64,000 nucleotides of DNA, taken from positions 147,923 to 211,922 of the forward strand of contig JACOYB010000004.1 of the NCBI GenBank assembly GCA_016182085.1. Direction: 5' to 3'. The position numbers and the translations under genes were made by a program. Numbering within the stretch: position 1 is the first letter of the stretch; every line of letters starts with the position of its first letter. Of the stretch, positions 1,983-59,506 are shown piece after piece. The notes under the pieces were generated by a model. That model did no database searches. It was not told the DNA's origin and was given only the letters and a program-made list of their open reading frames with translations. Source of the stretch: Candidatus Magasanikiibacteriota bacterium (GTDB taxonomy: Bacteria; Patescibacteriota; Patescibacteriia; Magasanikbacterales; GWA2-37-8).

Positions 1983-2010
1983 TCGGGAAGTGTTAAAAAT
2001 AAACTACAAC

Positions 2011-2035
2011 AAAACCGCTAAAACAGCGGTTTTTG
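2011..2035 (+). terminator. Rho-independent terminator after asnS
   Basis: Hairpin AAAACCGCT-aaaac-AGCGGTTTTT followed by a T-run. Confidence 0.6.
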
Positions 2036-2067
2036 TCTATTTTTAGATAAATTTTTGTCTTGCCATA

Positions 2068-2096
2068 TTGACAAAATGATAAATTTATGGTAAGAA
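2068..2096 (+). promoter_or_regulatory. Host-type sigma70-like promoter upstream of high-GC cassette 1
   Basis: TTGACAAAA -35, 17-bp spacer, TAAGAAT -10-like. Followed by a roughly 110-nt mid-GC leader with hairpin GGCTCTCCggttGGAGAGCC and a GGGGAGG RBS 7 nt before the ATG at 2209. Confidence 0.4.
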
Positions 2097-2208
2097 TGTT
2101 CTCAGAAGGCTCTCCGGTTGGAGAGCTGCTTTGACATAAAACTGCGTCCAGGGGGTACTAACTTCCGGACGTTTGTTCACAAATTCACCCTTCACGGGGA
2201 GGTCTGTC

Positions 2209-4563
2209 ATGGGATTTAACGACTTTTTCGCTGATAGTGCGACTCGTAGTCACCAGGGCGGTTCCACCTCGGATACCGCCAAATCCGGATTCAGTCCGGC
2301 GCCGGGCAGGACAAGCCTTACGTCCGATCTTCCGGCGGCAACGCAGTGGGATCGGGAAGCGGAGCGAGCGATCGGCCGTGCAAATCGGCACTTGGATGAG
2401 TTGCCCGAATTGATTCGGGCGGCCAAGGACACCTTTGGAAATGTCCAGTTCCAAGAAGCCAAAGCGGCCATTGGCCAACTGGAGAACAAGCTCTCGCTCG
2501 CTCAAGATAACGCGGGCAGAGCCAAAGGGATTCTGGGTCATGGCAGTGTTGAGAATAAGGCGCTGCTGGAACAGCTGGATATGCTGGAGCAGCGGATTCA
2601 ATCCGCCAAAGAAGATGTGGCGCCGATTCTGGCACGGAAGCCGCCAGAGACCAAGAGTGTTCCATTCTCCCTTCCTGGGGTAGATGAGGAACCTGACGCG
2701 GTTGGTAAATGGGAGAAAGAGCAGACTGCTACCCAGGATTCCTGGGAGACCACGCAGACTGCGATCAATTCATTGCCACCCGATGAGCGAGAGCCCGTTG
2801 GGTACGAGCAGGAAAGCTGTCGGGTTCGAGGCCCGGTGGCCGACAATGCCTTTGAGGGGATCAAGCTATTCATCAAGGCTCGAGCCGAGGATGATATTGA
2901 TCACGCCTACGACATTACGTATCCTTCCTTCTTGGTCGGACCAGGCAAGGTTGGTCCGTACAAGCTGGATCCGGCGCTCAAAGGCGGAAAGGTAGTGTTC
3001 TTCCTGGCTCACCATTCGGAGCGAGGTTACCCCGAGTGGGTCATCGGCCCCGATAACGTGGAAGAGTTCAGGCAGAACATTGACGCGTACGTTGGTGCGG
3101 CTCGCACGGCGCTGCCAGGAAGCAAAAAAATTCCTGGCTCACAGGCCGATGGGGCCGACAAGTTTCCCCACGACCCCTCAATGCTTGAGCTTGAGGCGTT
3201 TGGCAAAGCGCCTTACCAGCAACAGCTGGGTGCAGGACAGAGCGAAGCCCCCTTCAACCAGCCGAAGGAACACTCCGGAATGTTCGGGGTGATGTGGGAT
3301 GGACTCACCGAAGGGATGGATGAAGCCAATGGCGGCAGTTCTGCTGTTGGCGCGCGTAATGCGCATATTCGTCTGACTGACTACGTGGAGAAGGCTCGGG
3401 AAATCGCCCGTCAACTAATGGCGGACGTAAACTCGGGAAAGATGCAGCATCTGGATGCTCGCGGCGCAGCCGTGGCCGGTCGCAACGATTTGATGCGAGG
3501 TGTGAGAGAGCGGATGTCACCATCCGCGCGCTATACCTCACAGAAGATCAAGGCAGACGATGGCATCTCCGAAGGCGCCATGGTCAAGAAGAAGGTGCCG
3601 GATCTCCTGAATGCGGCGCGAAAGGGCGGGGATGGTATGCGAGTTCTTGGTCAGGCAGGTAGTCCGGAAGATCTCCGCAAGTTCTTGGGAGAAGAATCCG
3701 AAGCCTGGTCCAAGTATCTCAAGGCTCTTGAGGCTGGCGAACCTAGCAAGTCCGTAACCTCAAAAGCTGTTCAGGAGATGAGTCAGCAGCCGTCGGTCAG
3801 CCGTGCCATCATCAATTCTGCTGGCAAGAACAACCAAACGGTAACCAGGCTTGTAAAGCTGGGTCGTGTGGCTGGTGCGGCAGGGGCCGCAGCCGGTGTT
3901 GTTGATATGGCTCAAACCATTTACAACGCCGAAGATGGAGAGCGACTCCACGTGGCTGCGGGTGAGCTCGGTGGATTTGTAGGTGGAATTATTGGCGCTG
4001 AACTTGGCGCCATGGCCGCAGTCTGGGTTGCGTCACTGATCATTTCTGGTCCGGCTGCGCCTGTCGTGCTGGTCGTGTCGCTTATCGGCGGCATGGTCGG
4101 CGGAGCGATTGGCGCGCAAGCTGGGCACGAAATGCCGAACATGGCAACTGCGGCGCTTGGCGAAGGCCTTAACGCGGTGGTTACTCCCGGATCCGGGCAA
4201 GCCGGTGGCTATGCTGGTATGCACCAGCGCAGCTCCCAGGCTGGCAAGGACAAGATGAACACCGCGGAACGGTTGCGTCAGATCCAGGACCAGCTCGATT
4301 CGGATATCAGGCAGGCTGAAACCGAAATCAAGAAGGCCAAGGATCGGGACGATCTTGACCGTTGGCAGTTGCAGCGGCTTAACCTGCTGAACTATCGCGA
4401 CCAGGTCGGCGGTATCTACCAGCTCCTGCGGGCTGGCAAGATCAACGAGACCCAGGTCTACGAACTGATGGGTGAAGAGGTCGTCAAACCCGAACCTCAG
4501 GAGTGCGCTCCTGAAGAAGAATCGGAAGGCGGGGCCAATGAAGTTTCTGAAGTTGAGCGGTAA
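2209..4563 (+). CDS. Hypothetical large protein on a high-GC island: coiled-coil N- and C-terminal regions plus a glycine-zipper transmembrane segment
   Basis: 784-aa ORF (ATG at 2209 after GGGGAGG; the ORF track extends upstream to a TTG at 2173). The locus is about 60% GC in a roughly 40% GC genome, with GC-rich third codon positions. Gly-zipper region AGAAGAAAGVV..GGFVGGIIGAELGAMAAVWVASLIISGPAAPVVLVVSLIGGMVGGAIGAQAG. Flanking coiled coils. No recognisable catalytic motif. Confidence 0.6.
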   Translation: MGFNDFFADSATRSHQGGSTSDTAKSGFSPAPGRTSLTSDLPAATQWDREAERAIGRANRHLDELPELIRAAKDTFGNVQFQEAKAAIGQLENKLSLAQDNAGRAKGILGHGSVENKALLEQLDMLEQRIQSAKEDVAPILARKPPETKSVPFSLPGVDEEPDAVGKWEKEQTATQDSWETTQTAINSLPPDEREPVGYEQESCRVRGPVADNAFEGIKLFIKARAEDDIDHAYDITYPSFLVGPGKVGPYKLDPALKGGKVVFFLAHHSERGYPEWVIGPDNVEEFRQNIDAYVGAARTALPGSKKIPGSQADGADKFPHDPSMLELEAFGKAPYQQQLGAGQSEAPFNQPKEHSGMFGVMWDGLTEGMDEANGGSSAVGARNAHIRLTDYVEKAREIARQLMADVNSGKMQHLDARGAAVAGRNDLMRGVRERMSPSARYTSQKIKADDGISEGAMVKKKVPDLLNAARKGGDGMRVLGQAGSPEDLRKFLGEESEAWSKYLKALEAGEPSKSVTSKAVQEMSQQPSVSRAIINSAGKNNQTVTRLVKLGRVAGAAGAAAGVVDMAQTIYNAEDGERLHVAAGELGGFVGGIIGAELGAMAAVWVASLIISGPAAPVVLVVSLIGGMVGGAIGAQAGHEMPNMATAALGEGLNAVVTPGSGQAGGYAGMHQRSSQAGKDKMNTAERLRQIQDQLDSDIRQAETEIKKAKDRDDLDRWQLQRLNLLNYRDQVGGIYQLLRAGKINETQVYELMGEEVVKPEPQECAPEEESEGGANEVSEVER

Positions 4564-4975
4564 TCGTACCCAGAATCGGGCGACCTTGTGGATGGTTGAC
4601 GTGGGATTGTTCCTGTTCGGAATGTTTGCCGCGTTTACCACGTATGTGTTAGTTCCCCAACTGAACCGCTCGTTGCCTGTGTGGACACTGGTATTCTTGC
4701 TGCCAGTGCTAACATTTACGGTACGAGTCCAGTTCGTCAAATCTGAGAACGGCGTAATTGCAAAATTCATCTACTTCTGGCTGTTTGTTCCGTATAGGTT
4801 CAGTAGTCAGGAAGTGGTGGATGTAGCGACAAGCTGTAGTTCAGATGATCTGGACAAAGAAGATGAGCTGGGGTTGATGAGGAGGGACGGAAACCACAAC
4901 TGGATTGAGTGCTACGGCGCAAATGCCGTGGCTCAGTGGATACGAAAATCCACCGGTTTGAACCTCGAACCGTAG
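4538..4975 (+). CDS. Hypothetical small membrane protein (2 predicted TM helices) on high-GC island 1
   Basis: ORF overlapping or abutting the 3' end of the large island gene. Possible starts are ATG 4538, GTG/ATG about 4592, or ATG 4472 in the track. Hydrophobic segments LFLFGMFAAFTTYVLV and LVFLLPVLTFTV. Same high GC as its neighbour. Confidence 0.4.
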   Translation: MKFLKLSGNRTQNRATLWMVDVGLFLFGMFAAFTTYVLVPQLNRSLPVWTLVFLLPVLTFTVRVQFVKSENGVIAKFIYFWLFVPYRFSSQEVVDVATSCSSDDLDKEDELGLMRRDGNHNWIECYGANAVAQWIRKSTGLNLEP

Positions 4976-5030
4976 TTGCAAGAGGAGGTCAGTCGTCTGG
5001 TCGGAGCAATCCGAACAGACGCGAAGTTTC

Positions 5031-8612: not shown

Positions 8613-8690
8613 TGTCATTCCCGCCACAGCGGGAATCCAGGTGATTCGTTCGATCGGATACTAGATTCCCGCTGTGGCGGGAATGACAAC
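8613..8690. repeat. Cargo-less MITE-like palindromic element: two inverted copies of the GTCATTCCCGCCACAGCGGGAATCCAG hairpin repeat separated by a 20-bp spacer
   Basis: Copy 1 at 8613-8640 and inverted copy at 8661-8690. Each copy is itself a hairpin (ATTCCCGC-N4-GCGGGAAT). Same family as the terminal inverted repeats of the GIY-YIG element at 56693-57062. Sits in the relA promoter region. Confidence 0.8.
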
Positions 8691-20724: not shown

Positions 20725-23445
20725 ATGTCGCACAAAAATTTTAGTAGAAATTTCAAAATAAAAAAGATAGTTATTTTTGTAGTTATCGCAATGGTAGGAA
20801 TATTAGTATGTCAGAGTGCTAAAGCAGCGGATATTAAAGCTTCAGAAGTTTTGGGTCAGATTAACCCAGCCACTAATCAACCCGATTTTACTCAGCGTAA
20901 TATAAATAGTCACGTGGTAAATAATTATGGTTTTAACCACGAGGAAGTAGTGATGGTAGATACAGGGCTCCATCGTTTATTTGTAGCCGATGCTAATAAT
21001 AACCGAGTTTTGGTTTTTAATCTTAATAATAATGATGAGCTTGTTGATTATTATGCGGATAATGTTTTAGGGCAATCAAATTTTATAAATTTTCTTTCAA
21101 ATCAGGGTGGTGCGCCAGGAGCCGCAACCATGCGTTTTCCCTCAGGTCTTGCTTATAACAATCTCAACAATACTTTGTATGTGTCTGATACTTATAACAA
21201 TCGTGTTTTGGTTTTTGATGTCAGTACTATTACCAACGGCGAACCGGCCGTTGCAGTTTTGGGACAATCTACATTTGCAAATGTAAGTGCCAATCAGAGT
21301 GGCGCTGTTTCTGCCCAAACTCTTTTTAATCCTACAAGCCTTGTGCATAACAGCATAGATAATATTTTATATGTTTCTGATTTAGCTAATTCTCGTGTTC
21401 TAGCCTATGATGTAAATACTATCGTAAATGGCGAAGCGGCCGTTGCAGTCTTAGGCCAGCCTAATTTTATAAGTAATACGTTCACGGGAGTATCACCTAC
21501 GTCTGTATTTCAGCCTAGAGGCCTGGCCTTTAACAATACCAATAAATGGTTATATTTGGCTGACAGTTACAATAATCGCGTCCTAGCCTATGATGTAAAT
21601 ACTATCGTAAATGGCGAAGCGGCCGTTGCGGTCTTAGGCCAGCCTAACTTGATGAGTGCTGTTGCTAACTATCCCAATAATATTCCCGCTGCTAACAATC
21701 TTTCTTTGCCGAGGGGGGTCGCTTTTGATAAGGGGAGTATGAAATTATATGTTTCTGATTCAGCTAATTCTCGTGTTCTAGCCTATGATGTAAATACTAT
21801 CGTAAATGGCGAAGCGGCTGTGGCGGTCTTAGGCCAGCCTAATTTTATCAGTAATAGTGCCAATCAAGGTGGTATGTTAGCGGGAGCTACAACTGTTAAT
21901 TATCCAATGGGGCTTGCTCTTAACAGTTACAAAAAATTATTTGTAGCTGATACCAATAACAACAGGGTTTTGGTTTTTGATGTCAGTGTTATTGTTAATG
22001 GCGAAGCCGCGGCTTCAGTTTTAGGCCAGCTTGATAATAGCAGTCAGCCGAATTTCAACCAGAACAGAATTAATAGTCATTTAATCAACGATTATGGTTT
22101 TGACAAGCCAAAAGAAATGGCCATAGATATAAAATTACACCGTTTATTTGTAGCCGATACTAATAACAACCGTGTTTTGGTTTTTAACCTTAATAATAAT
22201 GATGAGCTTATTGATTATAATGCGGATAGTGTTTTAGGCCAGCCCGATTTTACAAGCAACTTACCAAATCAAGGAGGTAACACAGGGCCTGGAACTCTTA
22301 ATCATCCGTCCGGTCTTGCCTTTAACATAAGTAGAAATTTACTATATGTGGCAGACACGAATAATCATCGCGTTTTAGTTTACGATGTTACTACCATTGT
22401 TAATGGACAATCAGCGGTCAGTGTTTTGGGTCAACCTGATTTTATAAGCTCTCTTAAGAATAATTGTAACTGTACTATTCCGACTGCGAACTCTCTTAAT
22501 GCACCCGGCAACATTGTATACAGTAAAAATAATAACATTTTATATGTAGGAGACGGTGGTAATGCGCGCGTGCTTGCTTATAATGTTACGACTATCGTCA
22601 ATGGAGAATCAGCTCTTTCAGTGTTGGGTAAGCCGGATTTTGTTACTCCTTTCGTTAATAACCCCCCGACAGCAGAAAATCTTAATCAGTTTTTAGACAT
22701 GGGCGGTTTAGCCTATGACGATGATAACAAAATTCTATATGTTTCTGACTCGCGCAAGCATCGTGTCTTAGCTTACGATGTAAACACTATCGTAAATGGC
22801 GAAGCAGCCGTTGCGGTCTTAGGACAATTTAACTTTTTAAGCGGTAACTCAAACCAAGGAGGTTTTTGGCCAGGGCCAGGAACTCTTCATTCCCCCGTAG
22901 GTCTTGTATATGATAAGGATAATAAAAGTTTGTTCGTAACGGATCAAGGTAATAATCGCGTTCTGTTGTTCGACGTAGCTACCATTGTTAATGGCGAAGC
23001 GGCAGCTGCGGTTTTAGGTCAGCTTAATTTTGTCAGTAATTATCCAAATCAAGGCAGTTTTTTACCAGGACAAAAGACCCTTTGGGTCCCATCTGCTGTC
23101 ACGTACAACGGTGTCAATAACACTGTATATATATCAGATTTAGAAAATAATCGTGTTATGCTGTTTAAGCTTATTGATATTATTACCGTAGAGATGCCTA
23201 ATGGCACAGTGGGCAATTCATATAACCAGACGGTAGTGGCTCAAAATGGCCAAAGTAACAACGTAAGATATTCTGTTAGCGCCGGATCTTTGGCTAACGG
23301 CCTTACATTGAACAGTGTAACAGGGTTGATCTCTGGTACGCCCACTGTAGCCGGTACTTTCTTATTTACTATTAAAGCTTCGGATAATTTTGCGGATACC
23401 AGTGTGATCTCTGATCGCCGTCAGTTTAAGCATACGATTTTCTAG
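20725..23445 (+). CDS. Large secreted NHL-repeat (beta-propeller) protein with a C-terminal putative Ig-like domain
   Basis: Signal/TM at the N-terminus (ATG 20725; the track start 20653 is probably an upstream extension). At least 12 NHL-type repeats (LYVSD..NNRVLVFDV...NGEAAVAVLGQPNF). C-terminal LTLNSVTGLISGTPTVAGTFLFTIKASDN (dystroglycan/He_PIG-like Ig). TTGACA/TATTAT promoter at about 20664-20698. Confidence 0.75.
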   Translation: MSHKNFSRNFKIKKIVIFVVIAMVGILVCQSAKAADIKASEVLGQINPATNQPDFTQRNINSHVVNNYGFNHEEVVMVDTGLHRLFVADANNNRVLVFNLNNNDELVDYYADNVLGQSNFINFLSNQGGAPGAATMRFPSGLAYNNLNNTLYVSDTYNNRVLVFDVSTITNGEPAVAVLGQSTFANVSANQSGAVSAQTLFNPTSLVHNSIDNILYVSDLANSRVLAYDVNTIVNGEAAVAVLGQPNFISNTFTGVSPTSVFQPRGLAFNNTNKWLYLADSYNNRVLAYDVNTIVNGEAAVAVLGQPNLMSAVANYPNNIPAANNLSLPRGVAFDKGSMKLYVSDSANSRVLAYDVNTIVNGEAAVAVLGQPNFISNSANQGGMLAGATTVNYPMGLALNSYKKLFVADTNNNRVLVFDVSVIVNGEAAASVLGQLDNSSQPNFNQNRINSHLINDYGFDKPKEMAIDIKLHRLFVADTNNNRVLVFNLNNNDELIDYNADSVLGQPDFTSNLPNQGGNTGPGTLNHPSGLAFNISRNLLYVADTNNHRVLVYDVTTIVNGQSAVSVLGQPDFISSLKNNCNCTIPTANSLNAPGNIVYSKNNNILYVGDGGNARVLAYNVTTIVNGESALSVLGKPDFVTPFVNNPPTAENLNQFLDMGGLAYDDDNKILYVSDSRKHRVLAYDVNTIVNGEAAVAVLGQFNFLSGNSNQGGFWPGPGTLHSPVGLVYDKDNKSLFVTDQGNNRVLLFDVATIVNGEAAAAVLGQLNFVSNYPNQGSFLPGQKTLWVPSAVTYNGVNNTVYISDLENNRVMLFKLIDIITVEMPNGTVGNSYNQTVVAQNGQSNNVRYSVSAGSLANGLTLNSVTGLISGTPTVAGTFLFTIKASDNFADTSVISDRRQFKHTIF

Positions 23446-23494
23446 TTAATAATTCTTACTACATACTTTGCAGTTTGTTAAGAGCAAAATAATA

Positions 23495-23528
23495 AAAAGA
23501 CCATTAACTCAACAAGTATGGTCTTTTT
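23495..23528 (+). terminator. Terminator of the NHL-repeat gene
   Basis: AAAAAGACCATtaactcaacaagtATGGTCTTTTT, followed by a TTGACAAAA promoter-like box at 23532. Confidence 0.6.
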
Positions 23529-23608
23529 ATATTGACAAAATGTAATTAATCAGTCATTATACCCCTATATGAACCGAGAAATCGGCGATTTTGCGTATTT
23601 ACGTTAAT

Positions 23609-23783
23609 TGTCATTCTGAGTGGAACGAAGAATCCCTGTATATCATTCCCGCCAAAGCGGGAATCCAGACAATCGGATACTGGATTCCCAATTCGTTGGG
23701 AATGACAGGCGAAGATCCCTCCCGCCCGAACGTACACGTTCGGTACGGGCGGGCGTCGGCTAAAGCCTCGCTTGGGATGACAA
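23609..23783. repeat. Cluster of hairpin repeats of the GTCATTCCC...GGGAATCCAG family plus a GC-rich palindrome
   Basis: Copies at 23609-23636 (diverged), 23641-23668 and inverted 23681-23708 (spacer ACAATCGGATAC). Palindrome CCCGCCCGAACGTAC/ACGTTCGG..GGGCGGG at 23721-23753. Partial copy TTGGGATGACAA at 23772-23783. Confidence 0.8.
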
Positions 23784-23844
23784 TGTAAAAGCATATGCCA
23801 CTATTTCCCCTAAGAGGGGTCTGCCCTCGGGGCTGAAAATAAGT

Positions 23845-25872
23845 ATGCCACTATTCCAACTCCACTCAAAATTTAAACCAGCTGGAGATCAGCCCGAAGC
23901 TATTAAACAATTAATGGCTAGTTTGGATAAAGGAAATCGTTATCAAACTTTGCTCGGGGTAACCGGTTCGGGTAAGACTTTTACTGTCGCCAATCTTATT
24001 ACGCAATTTGATCAGCCGGTCTTGGTAATGGCGCCCAACAAAGCCTTGGCCGCGCAGCTGTACCGTGAATACAAAAATTTCTTTCCCGAAAATTCGGTGA
24101 ATTATTTTGTTTCTTATTACGATTATTATCAGCCAGAGGCATATATGCCAACCAGCGATACCTATATAGAAAAAGAATCAATGATAAATGAAGAGATAGA
24201 CAGGTTGCGCCACCAGGCCACCAGCGCGCTCGTGTCTCGCAAAGATGTAATTGTGGTTGCCTCTGTATCCTGTATATATAACTTGGGTGTGCCAAATAAT
24301 TATTTTGAATCAGCCGTGCATTTGGAAATAGGGCAGCCGATGGTGCGAGCCGATCTTATGCGACAGCTGATAAAAATTCAATTTGCGCGCACGCCCGGAG
24401 CTTTAGAGAGAGGTAAGTTTCGTGTGCGGGGTGATGTGTTTGAAATAGCGCCAGCGGCCGATAAATTTTTGTATAGAATAGAAATTAAAGACCAAAGAGT
24501 GGCCGAGATTTCTGTAATAGATGCTCTAACAAAAGTTGTAAAAGAAAATCTAAAAGAAGCGGTAATATTTCCGGTAAAACATTTTGTGTCTTCAGAGCCG
24601 CAAATGAAGGAAGCGCTCAAAGAAATAAAAGCCGAACTAAAAGACCGCTTGGCATATTTTAAGAAAAAAGAATTGTATTTGGAAGCAGAACGGCTAGAGC
24701 GTCGTACTCGATATGATTTGGAAATGTTAAAAACTTTGGGTTTTTGTCATGGAATAGAAAATTATTCTCGGCATTTGGCCGGCAAGCTGGCCGGAGAAGC
24801 GCCGGACACTCTATTGGCATATTTTCCGTGGAAAGACGGCAAACCGGATTTTTTAACCATTATGGACGAATCACATATTGGCTTGCCCCAAGTGCGAGGT
24901 ATGTATGCCGGAGACAGAAGCCGTAAAGAAGTGCTGGCTCAGTATGGCTGGAGATTGCCTTCGGCTTTGGATAACCGCCCGCTTAAATTTGATGAATTTG
25001 AAAAAAGAGTCGGGCAAGTGGTATTTACTTCGGCTACTCCGGGGGATTTTGAAATGACCAAATCCAGCACTATTGCCGAACAAGTTATTCGCCCAACAGG
25101 ACTAATTGATCCGCCAATAGAAGTCCGCCGCGCCTCGCCGACAATAAACCCCACCCCTTTCCCCTCCCCTTATAGGGGAGGGAACGACACCAATAGTGTT
25201 GTTTCCCCCGCTCCGGTTCTCTCCCCTACAAGGGGAGAGATAAAGAGAGGGGTTTACAATGGCCAAGTAAATGATGTAATGCAAGAAATTGAAGGAATAG
25301 TTAAAAGAGGCGAACGAGCGATTATAAACGTGCTCACCAAAAAAATGGCCGAGGAATTATCGGAGTTTTTGCTTCAAAGAAAATTCGCGGTAAATTACCT
25401 GCATTCTGATGTAAAAACTTTGCAGCGCACGGAAATTTTGAATGATTTTCGTCTCGGAAAGTTTAGTGTGCTAATTGGCGTAAACTTATTGCGTGAAGGT
25501 TTGGATTTACCGGAAGTAACTTTGGTAGCGATTATGGATGCGGACCGAGAAGGGTTTTTGCGCAGCGAAGAGTCGCTTATGCAGACTATGGGCCGCGCCG
25601 CTAGAAATGTGAGTGGTAAAGTTATTTTGTATGCGGATACGCTTACTAAATCAATAAAAAATGCGATGAAGGAAGTGGAAAGACGCCGTAAGTTGCAATT
25701 GGAATATAATGAGAAACACGGTATTACGCCACAAACAACTCATAAAGCGATAGAACAGTTTTTGGATATTCCGGATGCGCCTGATCCCGCTAATTCTAGA
25801 TCAGGTAAAATTAGTACGGAGCCAGATCGTAGAGGTAAAAGATCAATTAAAAAGCAAACGGAGAAAAAGTAG
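23845..25872 (+). CDS. uvrB: Excinuclease ABC subunit B (UvrB) carrying an in-frame insertion of about 40 aa derived from palindromic repeat DNA
   Basis: MPLFQLHSKFKPAGDQPEAI start. Helicase motifs GVTGSGKT and DESH. UvrB C-terminal region. The segment ...VRRASPTINPTPFPSPYRGGNDTNSVVSPAPVLSPTRGEIKRGVYNG-QVNDVMQEI has no counterpart in canonical UvrB and is encoded by two CCCCT/AGGGG hairpins at about 25135-25262. Confidence 0.9.
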   Translation: MPLFQLHSKFKPAGDQPEAIKQLMASLDKGNRYQTLLGVTGSGKTFTVANLITQFDQPVLVMAPNKALAAQLYREYKNFFPENSVNYFVSYYDYYQPEAYMPTSDTYIEKESMINEEIDRLRHQATSALVSRKDVIVVASVSCIYNLGVPNNYFESAVHLEIGQPMVRADLMRQLIKIQFARTPGALERGKFRVRGDVFEIAPAADKFLYRIEIKDQRVAEISVIDALTKVVKENLKEAVIFPVKHFVSSEPQMKEALKEIKAELKDRLAYFKKKELYLEAERLERRTRYDLEMLKTLGFCHGIENYSRHLAGKLAGEAPDTLLAYFPWKDGKPDFLTIMDESHIGLPQVRGMYAGDRSRKEVLAQYGWRLPSALDNRPLKFDEFEKRVGQVVFTSATPGDFEMTKSSTIAEQVIRPTGLIDPPIEVRRASPTINPTPFPSPYRGGNDTNSVVSPAPVLSPTRGEIKRGVYNGQVNDVMQEIEGIVKRGERAIINVLTKKMAEELSEFLLQRKFAVNYLHSDVKTLQRTEILNDFRLGKFSVLIGVNLLREGLDLPEVTLVAIMDADREGFLRSEESLMQTMGRAARNVSGKVILYADTLTKSIKNAMKEVERRRKLQLEYNEKHGITPQTTHKAIEQFLDIPDAPDPANSRSGKISTEPDRRGKRSIKKQTEKK

Positions 25873-56692: not shown

Positions 56693-57062
56693 GTTGTCAT
56701 TCCCGTCGCAGCGGGAATCCAGTCGATATGAATCAACGCAAAAATTATTATGTATATATTTTGGCAAGTAAAAGAAATGGCACTTTATATATTGGAGTAA
56801 CAAATAGTTTGATCAGACGAATTTATGAACACAAGCAAAATTTAATTGCTGGGTTCACAAAAAAATACGGAGTTCATAATCTAGTTTATTATGAAACTTA
56901 CGATAGTATAGACACTGCGATTGCCAGAGAAAAAGAAATTAAAAAATGGAGAAGAAAACCTAAAATTGACCTAATAGAAAAAGATAATTTAAATTGGCGT
57001 GATTTGTATAAGGAATTAAATCCAGCTTAGCGACTGGATTCCCGCTGCGGCGGGAATGACAA
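56693..57062 (+). mobile_element. Compact GIY-YIG nuclease element bounded by about 30-bp terminal inverted repeats of the GTCATTCCC...GGGAATCCAG hairpin family, inserted between pheS and pheT
   Basis: Left IR GTTGTCATTCCCGTCGCAGCGGGAATCCAGTCG (56693-56725) and right IR CGACTGGATTCCCGCTGCGGCGGGAATGACAA (57031-57062) are reverse complements with 1-2 mismatches. The ORF occupies the whole interior. Confidence 0.8.
56728..57030 (+). CDS. GIY-YIG domain nuclease (small YhbQ/COG2827-like)
   Basis: YYVYILASKRNGTLYIGVTNSLIRRIYEH (GIY...YIG), conserved R, E in EKEIKKW. 100 aa. Confidence 0.85.
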   Translation: MNQRKNYYVYILASKRNGTLYIGVTNSLIRRIYEHKQNLIAGFTKKYGVHNLVYYETYDSIDTAIAREKEIKKWRRKPKIDLIEKDNLNWRDLYKELNPA

Positions 57063-57070
57063 AACATTAT

Positions 57071-59506
57071 ATGTTAATAAGTTATCAGTGGTTAAAAAAA
57101 TACGTTAACCTTCCGGATTCTATTACGGCCGAAGAAGTGGCGGCAAGGCTAAAGGCTAGTACCGTGGAGGTAGAGAATGTTGAATTTCAAGGAAAAAACT
57201 TGGAAAATGTTGTGGTCGGGAAAGTTTTGTCTGCCGAAAAACATCCTAATGCCGATAAATTAAAATTATGTAAAGTTGATGTTGGAAATGAAAAGTTACA
57301 AATTGTCTGCGGCGGCAGCAATGTAGTGGCGGGCATGTTGGTGGCGCTGGCCAAAGTGGGCGCAAAAGTAAAATGGCATGGCGAAGGCGAATTAATAGAA
57401 TTAAAACCAGCCAAGATTCGCGATGTAGAGTCCGCCGGTATGATCTGCGCTTCTACCGAAATTGGTTTGGCCGAACTTTTTCCACTCAAAGATGAAAAAG
57501 AAATAATGGACATCACTCATCTAAAAGCCAGGCCAGGAACACCTTTAGCACAAGTGTTAGGGTTAAATGATTCTGTTTTGGAAATAGATAATAAATCACT
57601 GAGCAACCGGCCGGATTTATGGGGGCATTATGGCATAGCCAGAGAAGTGGCGGTGCTTTTTAATAAAAATTTAAAGGAATATAAAACAGATAAAATTAAG
57701 CCAGGTAAGGGGGGCGCAGTTAAAGTAGAAGTTGAAAATACCAAACTCTGTCCGAGGTATGTGGCCGTGGCCGTATCGGGAGTAAAAGTAGGTCCATCGC
57801 CGGAGTGGCTGAAAAAAAGTTTGTCAGCTATTGGATTACGTTCCATAAACAATATCGTAGATATTACCAACTTCGTTATGATGGATCTGGGGCAGCCGCT
57901 CCATGCTTTTGACGCGGCAAAAGTTGTCGACACTACGATTGTGGTTCGCGCCGCCAAAGATGGTGAGGAATTTATTACCCTTGATGGCGAGAAAAGAAAA
58001 CTAGATTCTTCCATGCTTATGATTGCCGACCAGTCAAAGGCCTTGGCCATTGCCGGAGTAATGGGAGGCTTGGACAGTGGTATAACCGACCAAACTAACA
58101 CGATTATTTTTGAATCAGCTAATTTTGATGCTGCTTCCATACGCCACACTTCAACCAAACTTGGGCTGCGCAGCGACGCTTCGGCTCGATTTGAAAAAAG
58201 TTTAGATCCAAGTCTTGCCATGCCGGCTTTACAAAAAGCCGTAGAATTAGTGCTGCAAATTTGTCCCGGAGCAAAAGTAGCCGGCAAAGTTGTGGAAGCG
58301 TCAAAGTTTAGCGTAAAACAAGGTCCGATCATGCTAAGTATGGGTCTCTTGGAGAAAAAAATCGGGACAAAAATATCTAAAAAAGAAGTAGAAAGAATTT
58401 TGACTCAGCTTGGTTTTGAGGTAAAGAGCAAAGGTGAAGGATTTGCAGTTAAAATTCCCACTTGGCGCGCCACTAAAGATATTTCCATTGCCGAAGATTT
58501 GGTGGAAGAAATCCTGCGTATGTATGGTTATGACAAGATAGAATCGTCGCTGCCAATGTTTGCCATAAACCCTCCCGAAGAAAATAAATTGAGAAAACTG
58601 GAACGGGAAGTAAAAAATATTTTGGCAAATTCTTTATCTTATACCGAAGTCTATAATTATTCTTTTGTTAGCGGCGAGCAGATAGCAAAAATTGGGGACG
58701 ATCCCGCAAAGTATATTGCTTTAGATAATCCGCTTTCAAAAGAAAAACCATATTTGCGCCGATGCCTGCTTCTTAATTTGCTGGAAAATTTAGAACAGAA
58801 TCAAGCAGGAAATAATACGTTAAAGTTATTTGAAATTGGCAGCGTGTTTCGCGAAGAAGACTCTGGTTTGCGTACAGAATCTAATAAAGACAGCTTGTTG
58901 CCTGGACAAGATACCTGGTTTACGGCTGTGTATATGGAGAAGAAAAATAATACGCCTTTTTGGGCGGCCAGAGGCGTGGTAGAAACACTGTCAAAAACTA
59001 TATTGCCCGGTATTGTAGTTTCTAAATCCGGCGCAGACGGCTTTGCCAGACACCCATCCCGTTCGGCTGGACTTATGATGGGAGAAAAAAATGTGGGATC
59101 TTTATATGAGTTACATCCTAAAGTAGGGAGCAATTTTGGATTGGAAGGACGGGTAGGAGTAGTAAAAATAAATTTAAGCTTCGTGGCCGATCTGCAACAA
59201 TTTGAAACAACATATGCGCCAGTACCGGCATTTCCGGCTGTGGAAAGAGATTTAGCGATTATCGTTAAAAAGAACATAGCCCACCAAGATATTTTGTCAG
59301 CGTTATTAGGAGCCGATCCGCTGCTTCAGTCCGTTAGTTTGTTTGATGTATACGAGGGCGCAAATGTTAGCGCGGAATACAAAAGTATGGCCTACCATTT
59401 TATTTATAGAAATAATGAGCGAACTTTGGTAACTGAAGAAGTGGAAAAAGCCCATCAAAAAATAATTGATATCTTAAAAAAGAGTTTTAACGCCGAAGTA
59501 CGGTAA
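57071..59506 (+). CDS. pheT: Phenylalanine--tRNA ligase beta subunit
   Basis: MLISYQWLKKYV start. tRNA-binding OB domain, B3/B4 and B5 domains, C-terminal FDX-ACB. The track start at 57056 lies inside the right IR of the GIY-YIG element; ATG 57071 fits the family N-terminus. Confidence 0.93.
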   Translation: MLISYQWLKKYVNLPDSITAEEVAARLKASTVEVENVEFQGKNLENVVVGKVLSAEKHPNADKLKLCKVDVGNEKLQIVCGGSNVVAGMLVALAKVGAKVKWHGEGELIELKPAKIRDVESAGMICASTEIGLAELFPLKDEKEIMDITHLKARPGTPLAQVLGLNDSVLEIDNKSLSNRPDLWGHYGIAREVAVLFNKNLKEYKTDKIKPGKGGAVKVEVENTKLCPRYVAVAVSGVKVGPSPEWLKKSLSAIGLRSINNIVDITNFVMMDLGQPLHAFDAAKVVDTTIVVRAAKDGEEFITLDGEKRKLDSSMLMIADQSKALAIAGVMGGLDSGITDQTNTIIFESANFDAASIRHTSTKLGLRSDASARFEKSLDPSLAMPALQKAVELVLQICPGAKVAGKVVEASKFSVKQGPIMLSMGLLEKKIGTKISKKEVERILTQLGFEVKSKGEGFAVKIPTWRATKDISIAEDLVEEILRMYGYDKIESSLPMFAINPPEENKLRKLEREVKNILANSLSYTEVYNYSFVSGEQIAKIGDDPAKYIALDNPLSKEKPYLRRCLLLNLLENLEQNQAGNNTLKLFEIGSVFREEDSGLRTESNKDSLLPGQDTWFTAVYMEKKNNTPFWAARGVVETLSKTILPGIVVSKSGADGFARHPSRSAGLMMGEKNVGSLYELHPKVGSNFGLEGRVGVVKINLSFVADLQQFETTYAPVPAFPAVERDLAIIVKKNIAHQDILSALLGADPLLQSVSLFDVYEGANVSAEYKSMAYHFIYRNNERTLVTEEVEKAHQKIIDILKKSFNAEVR

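Follow-up and report, generated by a model that had tools for sequence, protein, structure and literature searches.

Phages and islands that integrate in tRNA genes carry an attachment site that duplicates the end of the target gene; such elements are kilobases long and encode an integrase. Optional GC clusters of the yeast var1 gene enter the same site by gene conversion, and leader uORFs with termination-reinitiation coupling are known in bacteria. Rickettsia palindromic elements (RPEs), as described by Ogata et al., are reportedly about 100-150 bp long, form multi-copy families and are tolerated through in-frame insertion.

The locus described here is the translation start of uvrB in a 64,000-nt stretch of DNA (the window) from a Candidatus Magasanikiibacteriota bacterium, where two copies of the start region, X1 upstream and X2 downstream, enclose Y, a GC-rich double hairpin of 38 nt. 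Like the small palindromic insertions Correia/NEMIS, ERIC, RUP and BOX (PMC10969869), Y is non-coding, short and structured, has a direct duplication on its flanks and adjoins a gene start, where such insertions can alter the 5' UTR and translation. Unlike bacterial MITEs and small palindromes, however, Y has no terminal inverted repeats, occupies a single locus in all collections searched, has a 12-13-bp duplication that takes in the start codon and recurs at the same site in separate lineages. Membership among the MITEs was rejected, with terminal inverted repeats and dispersed copies both lacking and copies found at the uvrB start only. RPEs (PMC10969869) are likewise palindromic inserts that the receiving gene survives, in the A+T-rich reduced genome of a host-dependent bacterium, and RPE-style in-frame palindromic inserts are also present in the same uvrB. 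Unlike RPEs, Y is 38 nt long, is confined to one locus and forms part of a frame-shifting 50-nt unit that is tolerated only via the duplicated start. It was not classed as an RPE-like in-frame insert: the 50-nt unit is not a multiple of three, lies outside UvrB and is single-locus. REP/REPIN sequences, which are RAYT-mobilized, high-copy and extragenic palindromes with a conserved 5' tetranucleotide, were also rejected as a class, as single-locus Y lies within the original uvrB ORF and not in extragenic DNA. Palindrome-associated elements of the IS200/IS605 type have subterminal hairpins and insert 3' of a fixed target of 4-5 nt without duplicating it. Y has two hairpins and follows TTT(A) in all three carriers, but it is bordered by the 12-13-nt repeat, other copies were absent and TnpA was not found nearby.

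As far as the account in PMC4478555 goes (with Paquin 2000 and Lang 2014 as cited there), fungal mitochondrial GC clusters, double-hairpin and 'byp' elements occur in many copies per genome and have 2-3-nt flanking repeats. They resemble Y as GC-rich (double-)hairpins of about 30-50 nt with flanking direct repeats in an A+T-rich genome, and also in their sporadic phylogenetic distribution and suspected horizontal spread. Unlike Y, the mitochondrial clusters are organellar, and they have no sequence relationship to it. The analogy with tRNA-gene integrating elements is functional, in that the gene is completed by element-borne sequence (here X2) and the native fragment (X1) stands on the other side; unlike in those elements, 38 nt lie between the repeats and a recombinase is absent. 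As in coupled leader uORFs, a short uORF ends a few nucleotides before the main start after passing through structure that would otherwise occupy the ribosome-binding region. Unlike in those systems, the uORF here appears to be an accidental by-product of the duplication, its peptide is not conserved and no terminator/antiterminator alternative is present.

Anatomy of the insert and of the uvrB 5' region

The uvrB gene (23845..25872, + strand) encodes excinuclease ABC subunit B, a protein of 675 aa whose N-terminus aligns with homologues from residue 1, and NCBI record MBI2037520.1, from metagenome SRR12113430, likewise has 675 aa. This confirms that the downstream copy is the real uvrB start, as the first-pass annotation had proposed. 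All features of the 5' region lie on the + strand. A candidate promoter at 23532-23560 has TTGACA (23532-23537), a 17-nt spacer and CATTAT (23555-23560), with 10/12 consensus matches, and is followed at 23574-23602 by a conserved 5' leader comprising a small hairpin, CCGAgaaaTCGG, then CGATTTT and GCGTATTTAC. TTGACA and the downstream leader are kept in 15 related loci, and the leader hairpin of L003 reads CCGGgaaaCCGG, with one pair altered on both sides. In relatives whose site is empty, 3-14 nt separate this leader from the uvrB ATG. In the window the leader has been moved about 190 nt from the start region by a separate, earlier insertion at 23603-23793, a palindrome cluster of the TGTCATTC..GGGATGACA type. 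Palindromes of this family are also found at 8613-8690 and on both sides of a GIY-YIG gene (56695-57061, with the protein encoded at 56728-57030), and the predicted 5' UTR containing 23603-23793 folds far better than shuffles (z = -5.6). An in-frame palindromic insertion further inside uvrB, at about 25129-25257, is common to the distant L098 (46/50 nt).

The exact 12-nt direct repeat TATGCCACTATT occurs at 23794-23805 and 23844-23855, with a spacing of 50 nt. The upstream copy, X1, is the displaced start region and contains a relic ATG (23795-23797), and X2 supplies the working uvrB ATG (23845-23847) and codons 2-4. A 14-bp duplication had been described: an exact repeat stands, at 12 nt, but the 14-mer TATGCCACTATTCC does not occur twice, its first copy being TATGCCACTATTTCC, with one extra T. 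The inserted core Y, TCCCCTAAGAGGGGTCTGCCCTCGGGGCTGAAAATAAG, spans 23806-23843 and comprises the two hairpins already noted at first pass, CCCCTAAGAGGGG (23807-23819) and GCCCTCGGGGC (23823-23833), plus an A-rich tail, now the sequence context just before the uvrB start codon. Its left end is TCCCCTAAG and its right end GAAAATAAG; an inverted-repeat search of 23400-24000 gave internal hairpins only, and no terminal inverted repeats of Y. The 50-nt unit of the X1-Y-X2 arrangement shifts the frame and contributes no part of UvrB, and the empty allele reads ...GCATATGCCACTATTCCAAC....

A promoter scan of Y found no promoter inside it. Searches of 23440-23960 for known RNA families (Rfam 15) gave no gathering-score match, the weak matches all lying outside Y. 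Over the whole window, Rfam detected one tRNA only. Several other identities were considered for the repeat and its core and rejected: a CRISPR-like repeat-spacer-repeat (dropped for the shortness of the repeat and for a 'spacer' that is identical across lineages), an integron attC site (the GTTRRRY core is absent) and a tandem duplicate of the neighbouring 38 nt (with which there is no similarity).

Empty sites, carriers and the search for further copies

Exactly these 50 nt are missing from thirteen related CPR uvrB loci that share the promoter and leader, and the 50-bp unit is thus an insertion. This comparison with relatives upholds the earlier proposal of a small insertion at the uvrB translation start with duplication of the start region. 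Two other lineages, L081 and L087, have the same module at an identical nucleotide position, giving three carrier lineages in total. The first is represented by L081, L082, L083 and L088 (Ca. Magasanikbacteria RIFOXYD2_FULL_39_9), four records from ENA, JGI and NCBI. The second, L087 (sample OBEQ01), is a single 2.2-kb contig with a chimeric 3' end, which is proteobacterial-like in protein searches; around its module, sequence that differs from the window sets in within 15 nt on either side, a pattern that speaks against a k-mer join. Neither the L087 N-terminus nor an MPLF-type N-terminus led to further carriers in protein searches, and the MPLF-start relatives L094 and L095 are without Y.

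Sequence identity among the carriers is incongruent with their relationships. Between the window and L087, Y is identical except for one A in an A-run, and Y plus X2 is identical at 50/50 positions apart from that base; for the same pair, identity is 59/71 (83%) over promoter and leader, 81% over uvrB nt 12-300, with 16/40 (40%) at fourfold-degenerate sites, and 73.5% in the neighbouring gene. L081 is nearer to the window (92.6% aa) than L087, which falls outside the window/L081 group, yet its Y is more diverged, at about 83% identity to the window. L001 and L085 are nearer to the window (92% aa) yet lack the module, and L085 groups with L081. The two start copies also differ in their affinities. 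X2 reads ATGCCAYTATT in all three carriers. The empty relatives L001 and L085 both begin ATGTCACTTTTT, and the X1 of L081 (ATGCTTTTTA) is this native start minus TCA; the X1 of L087 (ATGTCATTATTT) is the L002 start. In L081 and L087, therefore, X1 looks like a native-type start and Y plus X2 like the shared part, a combination that a plain local target-site duplication does not predict.

Further copies were sought in several collections. An exact-core scan of 241 million metagenome records returned 5 matches, 2 of them real, at uvrB starts, and 3 by chance, and viral contigs gave 0 matches. With blastn-short, about 1.07-1.09 Mb of related CPR DNA yielded only the known copies, and a covariance model of Y recovered from 1.07 Mb of related DNA its three training copies and pattern-selected chance matches only. 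Nothing comparable was found among repeats of at least 11 nt flanking a strong short hairpin in 1.09 Mb, nor any CCCCT..AGGGG hairpin with flanking repeats besides that at the uvrB start. The suggestion of a dispersed element that generates target duplications consequently fell: the metagenome, viral and related-CPR searches contained no second copy outside the uvrB start, and terminal inverted repeats are missing. The hairpins had also been assigned to the same family as the in-ORF palindromes, which did not hold up, as the best local alignment covers 12/14 nt with a score of 18 versus a shuffle mean of 16.6 (p = 0.28). Local alignments of Y with all neighbouring palindromes were no better than those of shuffles. 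Alignments with both strands of the uvrB 5' region and the leaders were not significant (best p 0.05-0.19), leaving a template-switch origin from nearby sequence unsupported.

Proposed origin and spread of the insertion

Our preferred reading, to which we tentatively assign a probability of roughly 0.45, is that the insert is a locus-specific, self-rescuing insertion allele that has been spreading between lineages, and not a member of a dispersed repeat family. Its observed basis is the structure of the locus, the relatives without the insert, the three carriers and an identity pattern at odds with the gene tree. The allele comprises 50 bp inserted at codon 4/5 of the original uvrB frame, namely Y (37-38 nt) followed by X2, a copy of 12-13 nt containing the start codon. 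UvrB is unchanged because X2 supplies an intact ATG and codons 2-4, and the displaced original start is left upstream as X1, opening a uORF of 12-13 codons through the hairpins. We infer that the structure originated once, through an insertion that duplicated 12-13 bp, in a lineage with a uvrB start of ATGCCACTATT. The window would retain the pristine form, in which X1 equals X2, and the Y plus X2 unit would later have passed to other Magasanikbacteria-type lineages at the same site. Uptake of DNA with short-patch recombination at the 5' end of uvrB is taken as the most likely route of this spread, favoured because uvrB is mosaic and other same-site optional insertions occur in these bacteria. 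A general signal of recombination comes from site patterns for the window, L081 and L085 (121:165:97), which are close to a trichotomy, and from the in-ORF insertion shared with the distant L098. The site patterns contain no distinct 5' recombination tract and no donor-like flank. We note that recombination would need a left crossover inside or adjoining the 12-13-nt X1 in L081 and L087, and homology this short counts against it. The small number of carrier lineages, three, with L087 represented by one partly chimeric contig, also weighs against the preferred reading.

Of the alternatives, the one that survives best, although we consider it unlikely, treats X1-Y-X2 as an ancestral cis-regulatory leader that was maintained by selection in a few lineages and lost many times by precise deletion between the direct repeats, such that the empty sites are deletion products. 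Direct repeats around hairpins are classic deletion substrates, and this deletion-prone architecture favours an ancestral leader. So do the starts of empty relatives, which are X1-type (ATGTCA.. in L001, L085 and L002, like the X1 of L081 and L087), the conservation of Y far above neutral sites, and a uORF that runs uninterrupted to one TGA in each of the three carriers, with the L081 frame restored by two deletions. However, on the UvrB tree such a history calls for a minimum of five or six separate losses, each of them precise, and Y is more diverged in the closer pair (window and L081) than in the distant pair (window and L087). Nor is it easily reconciled with 50/50 identity of Y plus X2 between the window and L087 when the universally conserved promoter and leader reach 83%. 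The carriers have no covariation or compensatory change in the Y hairpins, the L081 changes weaken both hairpins and the uORF peptide is not conserved in L081.

A site-specific mini-element that is itself active is a poorer prospect. On this account the 50-nt unit inserts 3' of a uvrB start-like sequence and rescues the gene with its own start, through a single-strand, hairpin-dependent or nuclease-triggered homing mechanism; its target, the empty site, would read TATG(Y)CA(Y)T(W)TTT. In L081 and L087 the sequence common to the carriers starts precisely where X1 meets Y and stops at, or close to, the last base of X2, a native X1 with no co-converted flank visible is present in both, the nucleotide position is identical in three lineages, and the genome has a homing-type GIY-YIG nuclease gene inside another palindromic element. 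Against these points, Y lacks a linked enzyme and does not resemble the arms of the GIY-YIG element, nothing similar exists elsewhere in 1.09 Mb, and the informative junctions number only two, too few. We know of no element class that inserts a unit ending in a copy of its own target. The boldest form of this account, which we hold with the same reserve, would make of Y plus X2 a 50-nt self-rescuing 'start-codon cassette', mobile DNA of a novel type that homes to the first uvrB codons across CPR lineages, brings its own ATG and codons 2-4 and so never inactivates its host gene. Insertion right after codon 4, with horizontal spread at a single locus and without dispersed copies, would be its mode of propagation and is equally doubtful.

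Still less convincing is the idea, along the lines proposed at first pass, that a MITE-like element transposed into the lineage of the window or into an ancestor of it and duplicated 12 bp of target, the other carriers having the insert by descent. The window has a perfect 12-bp direct repeat around a structured 38-nt insert, and L081 is a fairly near relative, at 92.6% aa. But terminal inverted repeats and a second copy are both absent, the latter in metagenome, viral and related-CPR searches. Descent is contradicted by L001 and L085, which lack the insert even though L085 groups with L081, and by L087, which lies outside the group with a virtually identical insert, and the differences between X1 and X2 in L081 and L087 are lineage-specific.

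Programmed translational bypass, known from phage T4 gene 60 and mitochondrial 'byp' elements, is highly improbable here. Take-off would occur at CUA-UUU of X1, with landing on the X2 codons 50 nt downstream, and the matched codons are indeed exactly 50 nt apart with a hairpin directly after the would-be take-off codon. Bypass is not needed, however, as X2 brings an ATG whose A/U-rich surroundings resemble those of most genes in the window, and ATG 23845 opens a complete ORF; a stop codon is absent after the would-be take-off site, and in L081 the X1-X2 spacing is 47 nt and X1 is degraded. A chance repeat or assembly artefact can be dismissed with similar assurance: order-2 Markov simulations do yield a mean of 0.9 12-mer repeats no more than 100 nt apart per 64-kb window, but the repeat is counted as real because 13 relatives lack exactly 50 nt and the insert ends in a copy of the preceding 12 nt, and the whole 50-nt unit is present in three lineages, with the L081 module in four records from three sources.

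Translation of uvrB and wider meaning

The relic ATG in X1 opens a uORF of 13 codons, MPLFPLRGVCPRG, plus TGA (23795..23836, + strand), which crosses both hairpins and ends at TGA 23834-23836, 8 nt (8-9 nt over the carriers) ahead of the working uvrB ATG. As the first-pass annotation had stated, ATG 23795 is out of frame with ATG 23845 and its frame stops after 13 codons. As read from the sequences, L087 (MSLFPLRGVCPRG) and L081 (MLFTPKRDLPVG) likewise have an uninterrupted frame between the X1 ATG and this TGA; in L081, deletions of 2 nt and 1 nt jointly restore the frame and the peptide is wholly different. Shine-Dalgarno matches, even loose ones, were found for 7/39 long ORFs in the window, and because the window genes are mostly without such sequences, both ATGs stand in similar A/U-rich contexts. 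Some ribosomes would be expected to initiate at the relic ATG, unfold the hairpins, release at the TGA and re-initiate at the real ATG, in which case uvrB translation would be modulated and not abolished. An effect of the insert on uvrB translation initiation is plausible. A leader-peptide attenuator was rejected as a description of the uORF, since the peptide is not conserved in L081, no terminator-like site occurs on the + strand at 23794-23845 and covariation is lacking.

For annotators, the locus is a caution, as the earliest ATG with the expected four initial codons is not where this uvrB starts. This uvrB and its relatives are full of optional palindromic inserts, located in the leader, at the start and in frame, a situation that recalls Rickettsia. 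A literature search found no paper linking palindromic elements with Patescibacteria or CPR, and as far as the searched literature shows, optional palindromic inserts of the Rickettsia style are undescribed for CPR. Here a conserved repair gene survives a frame-breaking insert at its fourth codon through an accompanying spare start codon. The presence of this insert at an identical position in two other lineages, and its absence from closer relatives, suggest that it passes between lineages as a unit, and it connects lineages otherwise saturated at silent sites. This points to frequent very-short-patch DNA exchange, or to site-specific re-insertion, among uncultivated CPR bacteria. Should this be confirmed, gene flow in Patescibacteria could be followed conveniently with the module as a natural marker.

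Structure of the uvrB start

The uvrB start carries an exact 12-nt direct repeat, TATGCCACTATT, on the + strand, with its upstream copy X1 (23794-23805) and downstream copy X2 (23844-23855) spaced 50 nt apart. Between them lies a 38-nt core, Y (23806-23843), made of two small GC hairpins, CCCCTAAGAGGGG (23807-23819) and GCCCTCGGGGC (23823-23833), followed by an A-rich tail, TGAAAATAAG. The first-pass annotation had located both hairpins correctly but had described a 14-mer occurring twice; the first copy contains an extra T, and the exact repeat is 12 nt. Its choice of the second copy as the real start agrees with the alignment, as the 675-aa UvrB read from ATG 23845, inside X2, aligns with homologues from residue 1, and the NCBI entry for the same genome (MBI2037520.1; Candidatus Magasanikbacteria, 410-kb contig) is likewise 675 aa. 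The ATG of X1 (23795) is, as first noted, out of frame with an early stop: its translation is MPLFPLRGVCPRG, and its TGA (23834-23836) lies 8 nt upstream of the real ATG. Y has no terminal inverted repeats, no internal promoter, no terminator on the + strand and no Rfam match. Simulations give about 0.9 12-mer repeats within 100 nt per 64 kb by chance, so the case hangs on comparison with relatives.

Carriers of the 50-nt unit

Relatives of this UvrB place the window in Patescibacteria/CPR. Comparison with lineages lacking the insert, proposed at first pass, found 13 from which the 50-nt Y+X2 unit is wholly absent; the unit is therefore an insertion plus a duplication of the start region. Besides the window, it occurs in Candidatus Magasanikbacteria RIFOXYD2_FULL_39_9 (TATGCTTTTTA-CCCCTAAGAGGGATCTGCCTGTGGGCTGAAAATATG-TATGCCATTATTTA; records L081, L082, L083 and L088 from ENA, JGI and NCBI) and in contig L087 (OBEQ011516178.1; TATGTCATTATTT-CCCCTAAGAGGGGTCTGCCCTCGGGGCTGAAAAATAAG-TATGCCACTATTT). 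Reverse-complemented, L087 continues at ~2100-2252 as proteobacterial-like uvrB after the universally conserved YYDYYQPEAY motif, and these last 150 nt mark the contig as chimeric at its end. Despite this, we accept its module as genuine on sequence grounds, because within 15 nt on both sides it is bordered by sequence unlike the window and the gene upstream is syntenic with the window's clade.

X2 reads ATGCCAYTATT (Met-Pro-Leu-Phe) in all carriers, and X1 equals X2 in the window only. The X1 of L081, ATGCTTTTTA, is the native start shared by the empty relatives L001 and L085 (ATGTCACTTTTT) minus TCA, and that of L087, ATGTCATTATTT, is the same as the L002 start. As judged from these sequences, X1 is the resident start in two of three carriers (L081 and L087) and Y+X2 is the common unit, which is not what plain local target duplication predicts. 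Of the initial reading, a small element inserted with target duplication, the insertion and the duplicated start region stand; target duplication would suit the exact repeat of the window but does not predict the other two carriers.

An 18-base Y core searched against a metagenome collection returned those uvrB sites and three chance matches, nothing else. A viral collection gave 0 matches, and neither BLAST nor a covariance model found further copies in 1.07 Mb of related CPR DNA. Neither the palindromes nearby, nor the in-ORF insertion, nor the flanking uvrB and leader sequence resembled Y significantly. Only 11 other hairpins of the CCCCT..AGGGG type occur in 1.09 Mb, which makes them rare, and the suggested search for direct duplications around them found none. 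Consequently, the proposals that the hairpins share a family with the in-ORF palindromes, and that Y belongs to a dispersed element with target duplications, are unsupported; in the collections searched, its copies occur at uvrB starts only.

Leader, insertion hotspot and translation

Across 16 lineages, uvrB has a conserved promoter, TTGACA-17-CATYAT (23532-23560 in the window), and all 16 keep a leader hairpin, CCGAgaaaTCGG, followed by the T-run CGATTTT (23574-23592). In L003 the hairpin is CCGGgaaaCCGG, with one pair altered on both its sides; it could be a candidate protein-binding site or attenuator-like element. The distance from leader to ATG is only 3-14 nt in five lineages (L001, L002, L003, L062 and L098) and 69-252 nt in the remaining 11, owing to various palindromic elements inserted there. 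In the window this interval holds two distinct items, a 190-nt palindrome cluster (23603-23793) and Y+X2. The gap is a hotspot, with palindromic inserts of at least four unrelated types in 11/16 lineages: the window-cluster family in L085, L092, L093, L094 and L097, an ACGAAA..TTTCGT type in L004 and L096, a CATGATACACGC type in L081, and an insert in L091.

Even a loose Shine-Dalgarno-like motif precedes only 7 of the 39 window ORFs of at least 200 codons, and upstream regions are A/T-rich. With both ATGs in such a context and their first 12 nt identical, the relic ATG at 23795 should be used by ribosomes. In all three carriers the uORF passes through both hairpins and stops 8-9 nt upstream of the real ATG, and in L081 a 2-nt and a 1-nt deletion jointly preserve its end at the same TGA. 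This geometry would suit termination-reinitiation, although chance could account for it in a set of only three sequences. The predicted fold includes a weak 6-bp helix joining the two ATG regions and is locally not unusually stable (z = -1.9); the entire 5' UTR is very stable (z = -5.6) because of the palindrome cluster.

Palindromic inserts also occur within uvrB. The window has an in-frame insert at an EVR|PVF site (~25129-25257), the 3' part of which is 46/50 nt identical to a same-site insert in the distant L098 (P0008), whose start site is empty; in that alignment the coding flanks look distinctly more diverged. Its left edge (Arg-Ala-Ser-Pro) is common to the window and L081, and the insert, like Y, recurs patchily at one site. 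At one further common site (alignment columns ~250-325), L085 (P0004) and L097 (P0020) have differing 33-37-aa in-frame inserts that look like translated palindromes (for example, VIARSRSDAAI).

Elsewhere in the window, arms of the same palindrome family as the uvrB-leader cluster, TGTCATTCCCG..GCGGGAATCCAG and CTGGATTCCCGC..GCGGGAATGACA, flank a 100-aa ORF (56728-57030, +) encoding a GIY-YIG nuclease domain (Pfam E = 3e-17). The whole element (56695-57061), which the literature searched does not describe, resembles a very small mobile element that carries a nuclease gene and has derivatives without the ORF. One ORF-less family member is a 78-nt, MITE-like copy at 8613-8690, with two inverted arms, a 20-nt spacer and no obvious flanking duplication. 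At 57050-57075, the right-hand arm of this element terminates in GAATGACA; its ATG (57056) shares its frame with the long ORF that follows (to 59506; second ATG at 57072). Here too, a palindromic element has altered the start of a gene. Separately, a GC-rich stretch at 2001-5000 (0.53-0.57 versus 0.43 overall) holds a 785-codon ORF (2209-4563) preceded by GGAGG, unlike most window genes; it is not rRNA, having no Rfam hit, and could be of foreign origin.

Proposed spread of the unit between lineages

Full-length UvrB sequences, 92-96% identical, group as (L001,(window,(L085,L081))); two members of this group, L001 and L085, are without the module. L087 falls outside it: over uvrB nt 12-300 it shares 81% identity with the window and 86-87% with L096 and L003, which are also without the module. 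Between L087 and the window, 16/40 fourfold-degenerate sites, 73.5% of a neighbouring gene and 59/71 positions of the conserved promoter and leader are identical, whereas Y+X2 is identical at 50/50 save one base in an A-run (L087 has a second A-run error, a 1-nt deletion breaking the uvrB frame). Y of L081, a closer relative of the window than L087, is only ~83% identical; its hairpins are weakened, and no change compensates for this. Spread of Y+X2 between lineages, via recombination or site-specific insertion, is ranked first because identity runs opposite to relatedness and surpasses that of the functional leader. An ancient X1-Y-X2 structure with many losses through X1-X2 deletion fits the distribution but ranks below spread on that same identity pattern.

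Among routes of spread, recombination following DNA uptake would rank first, given the mosaic structure of uvrB in a comparison of the window, L081 and L085 (121:165:97 site patterns) and the in-ORF insert common to the window and L098. Against this route, no donor-type flank can be seen, and it would require a left crossover no more than a few bases from X1. Less probably, Y+X2 would be a site-specific, self-rescuing start-codon cassette.

Y+X2 failed membership tests for a MITE, a REP element, an RPE-type in-frame insert, an attenuator and a bypass element. In how it works it resembles the small palindromic inserts of bacteria, and also integrating elements that restore the end of the gene they target. 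Fungal mitochondria offer the closest likeness in their GC clusters and double-hairpin elements, which are sporadically distributed GC hairpins flanked by repeats in an A+T-rich genome (PMC4478555); the literature searched contains no account of such elements in CPR. The uvrB start of this bacterium is a real, unusual small insertion allele, and the sequence comparisons, with few carriers, provide evidence that it may have moved between lineages.
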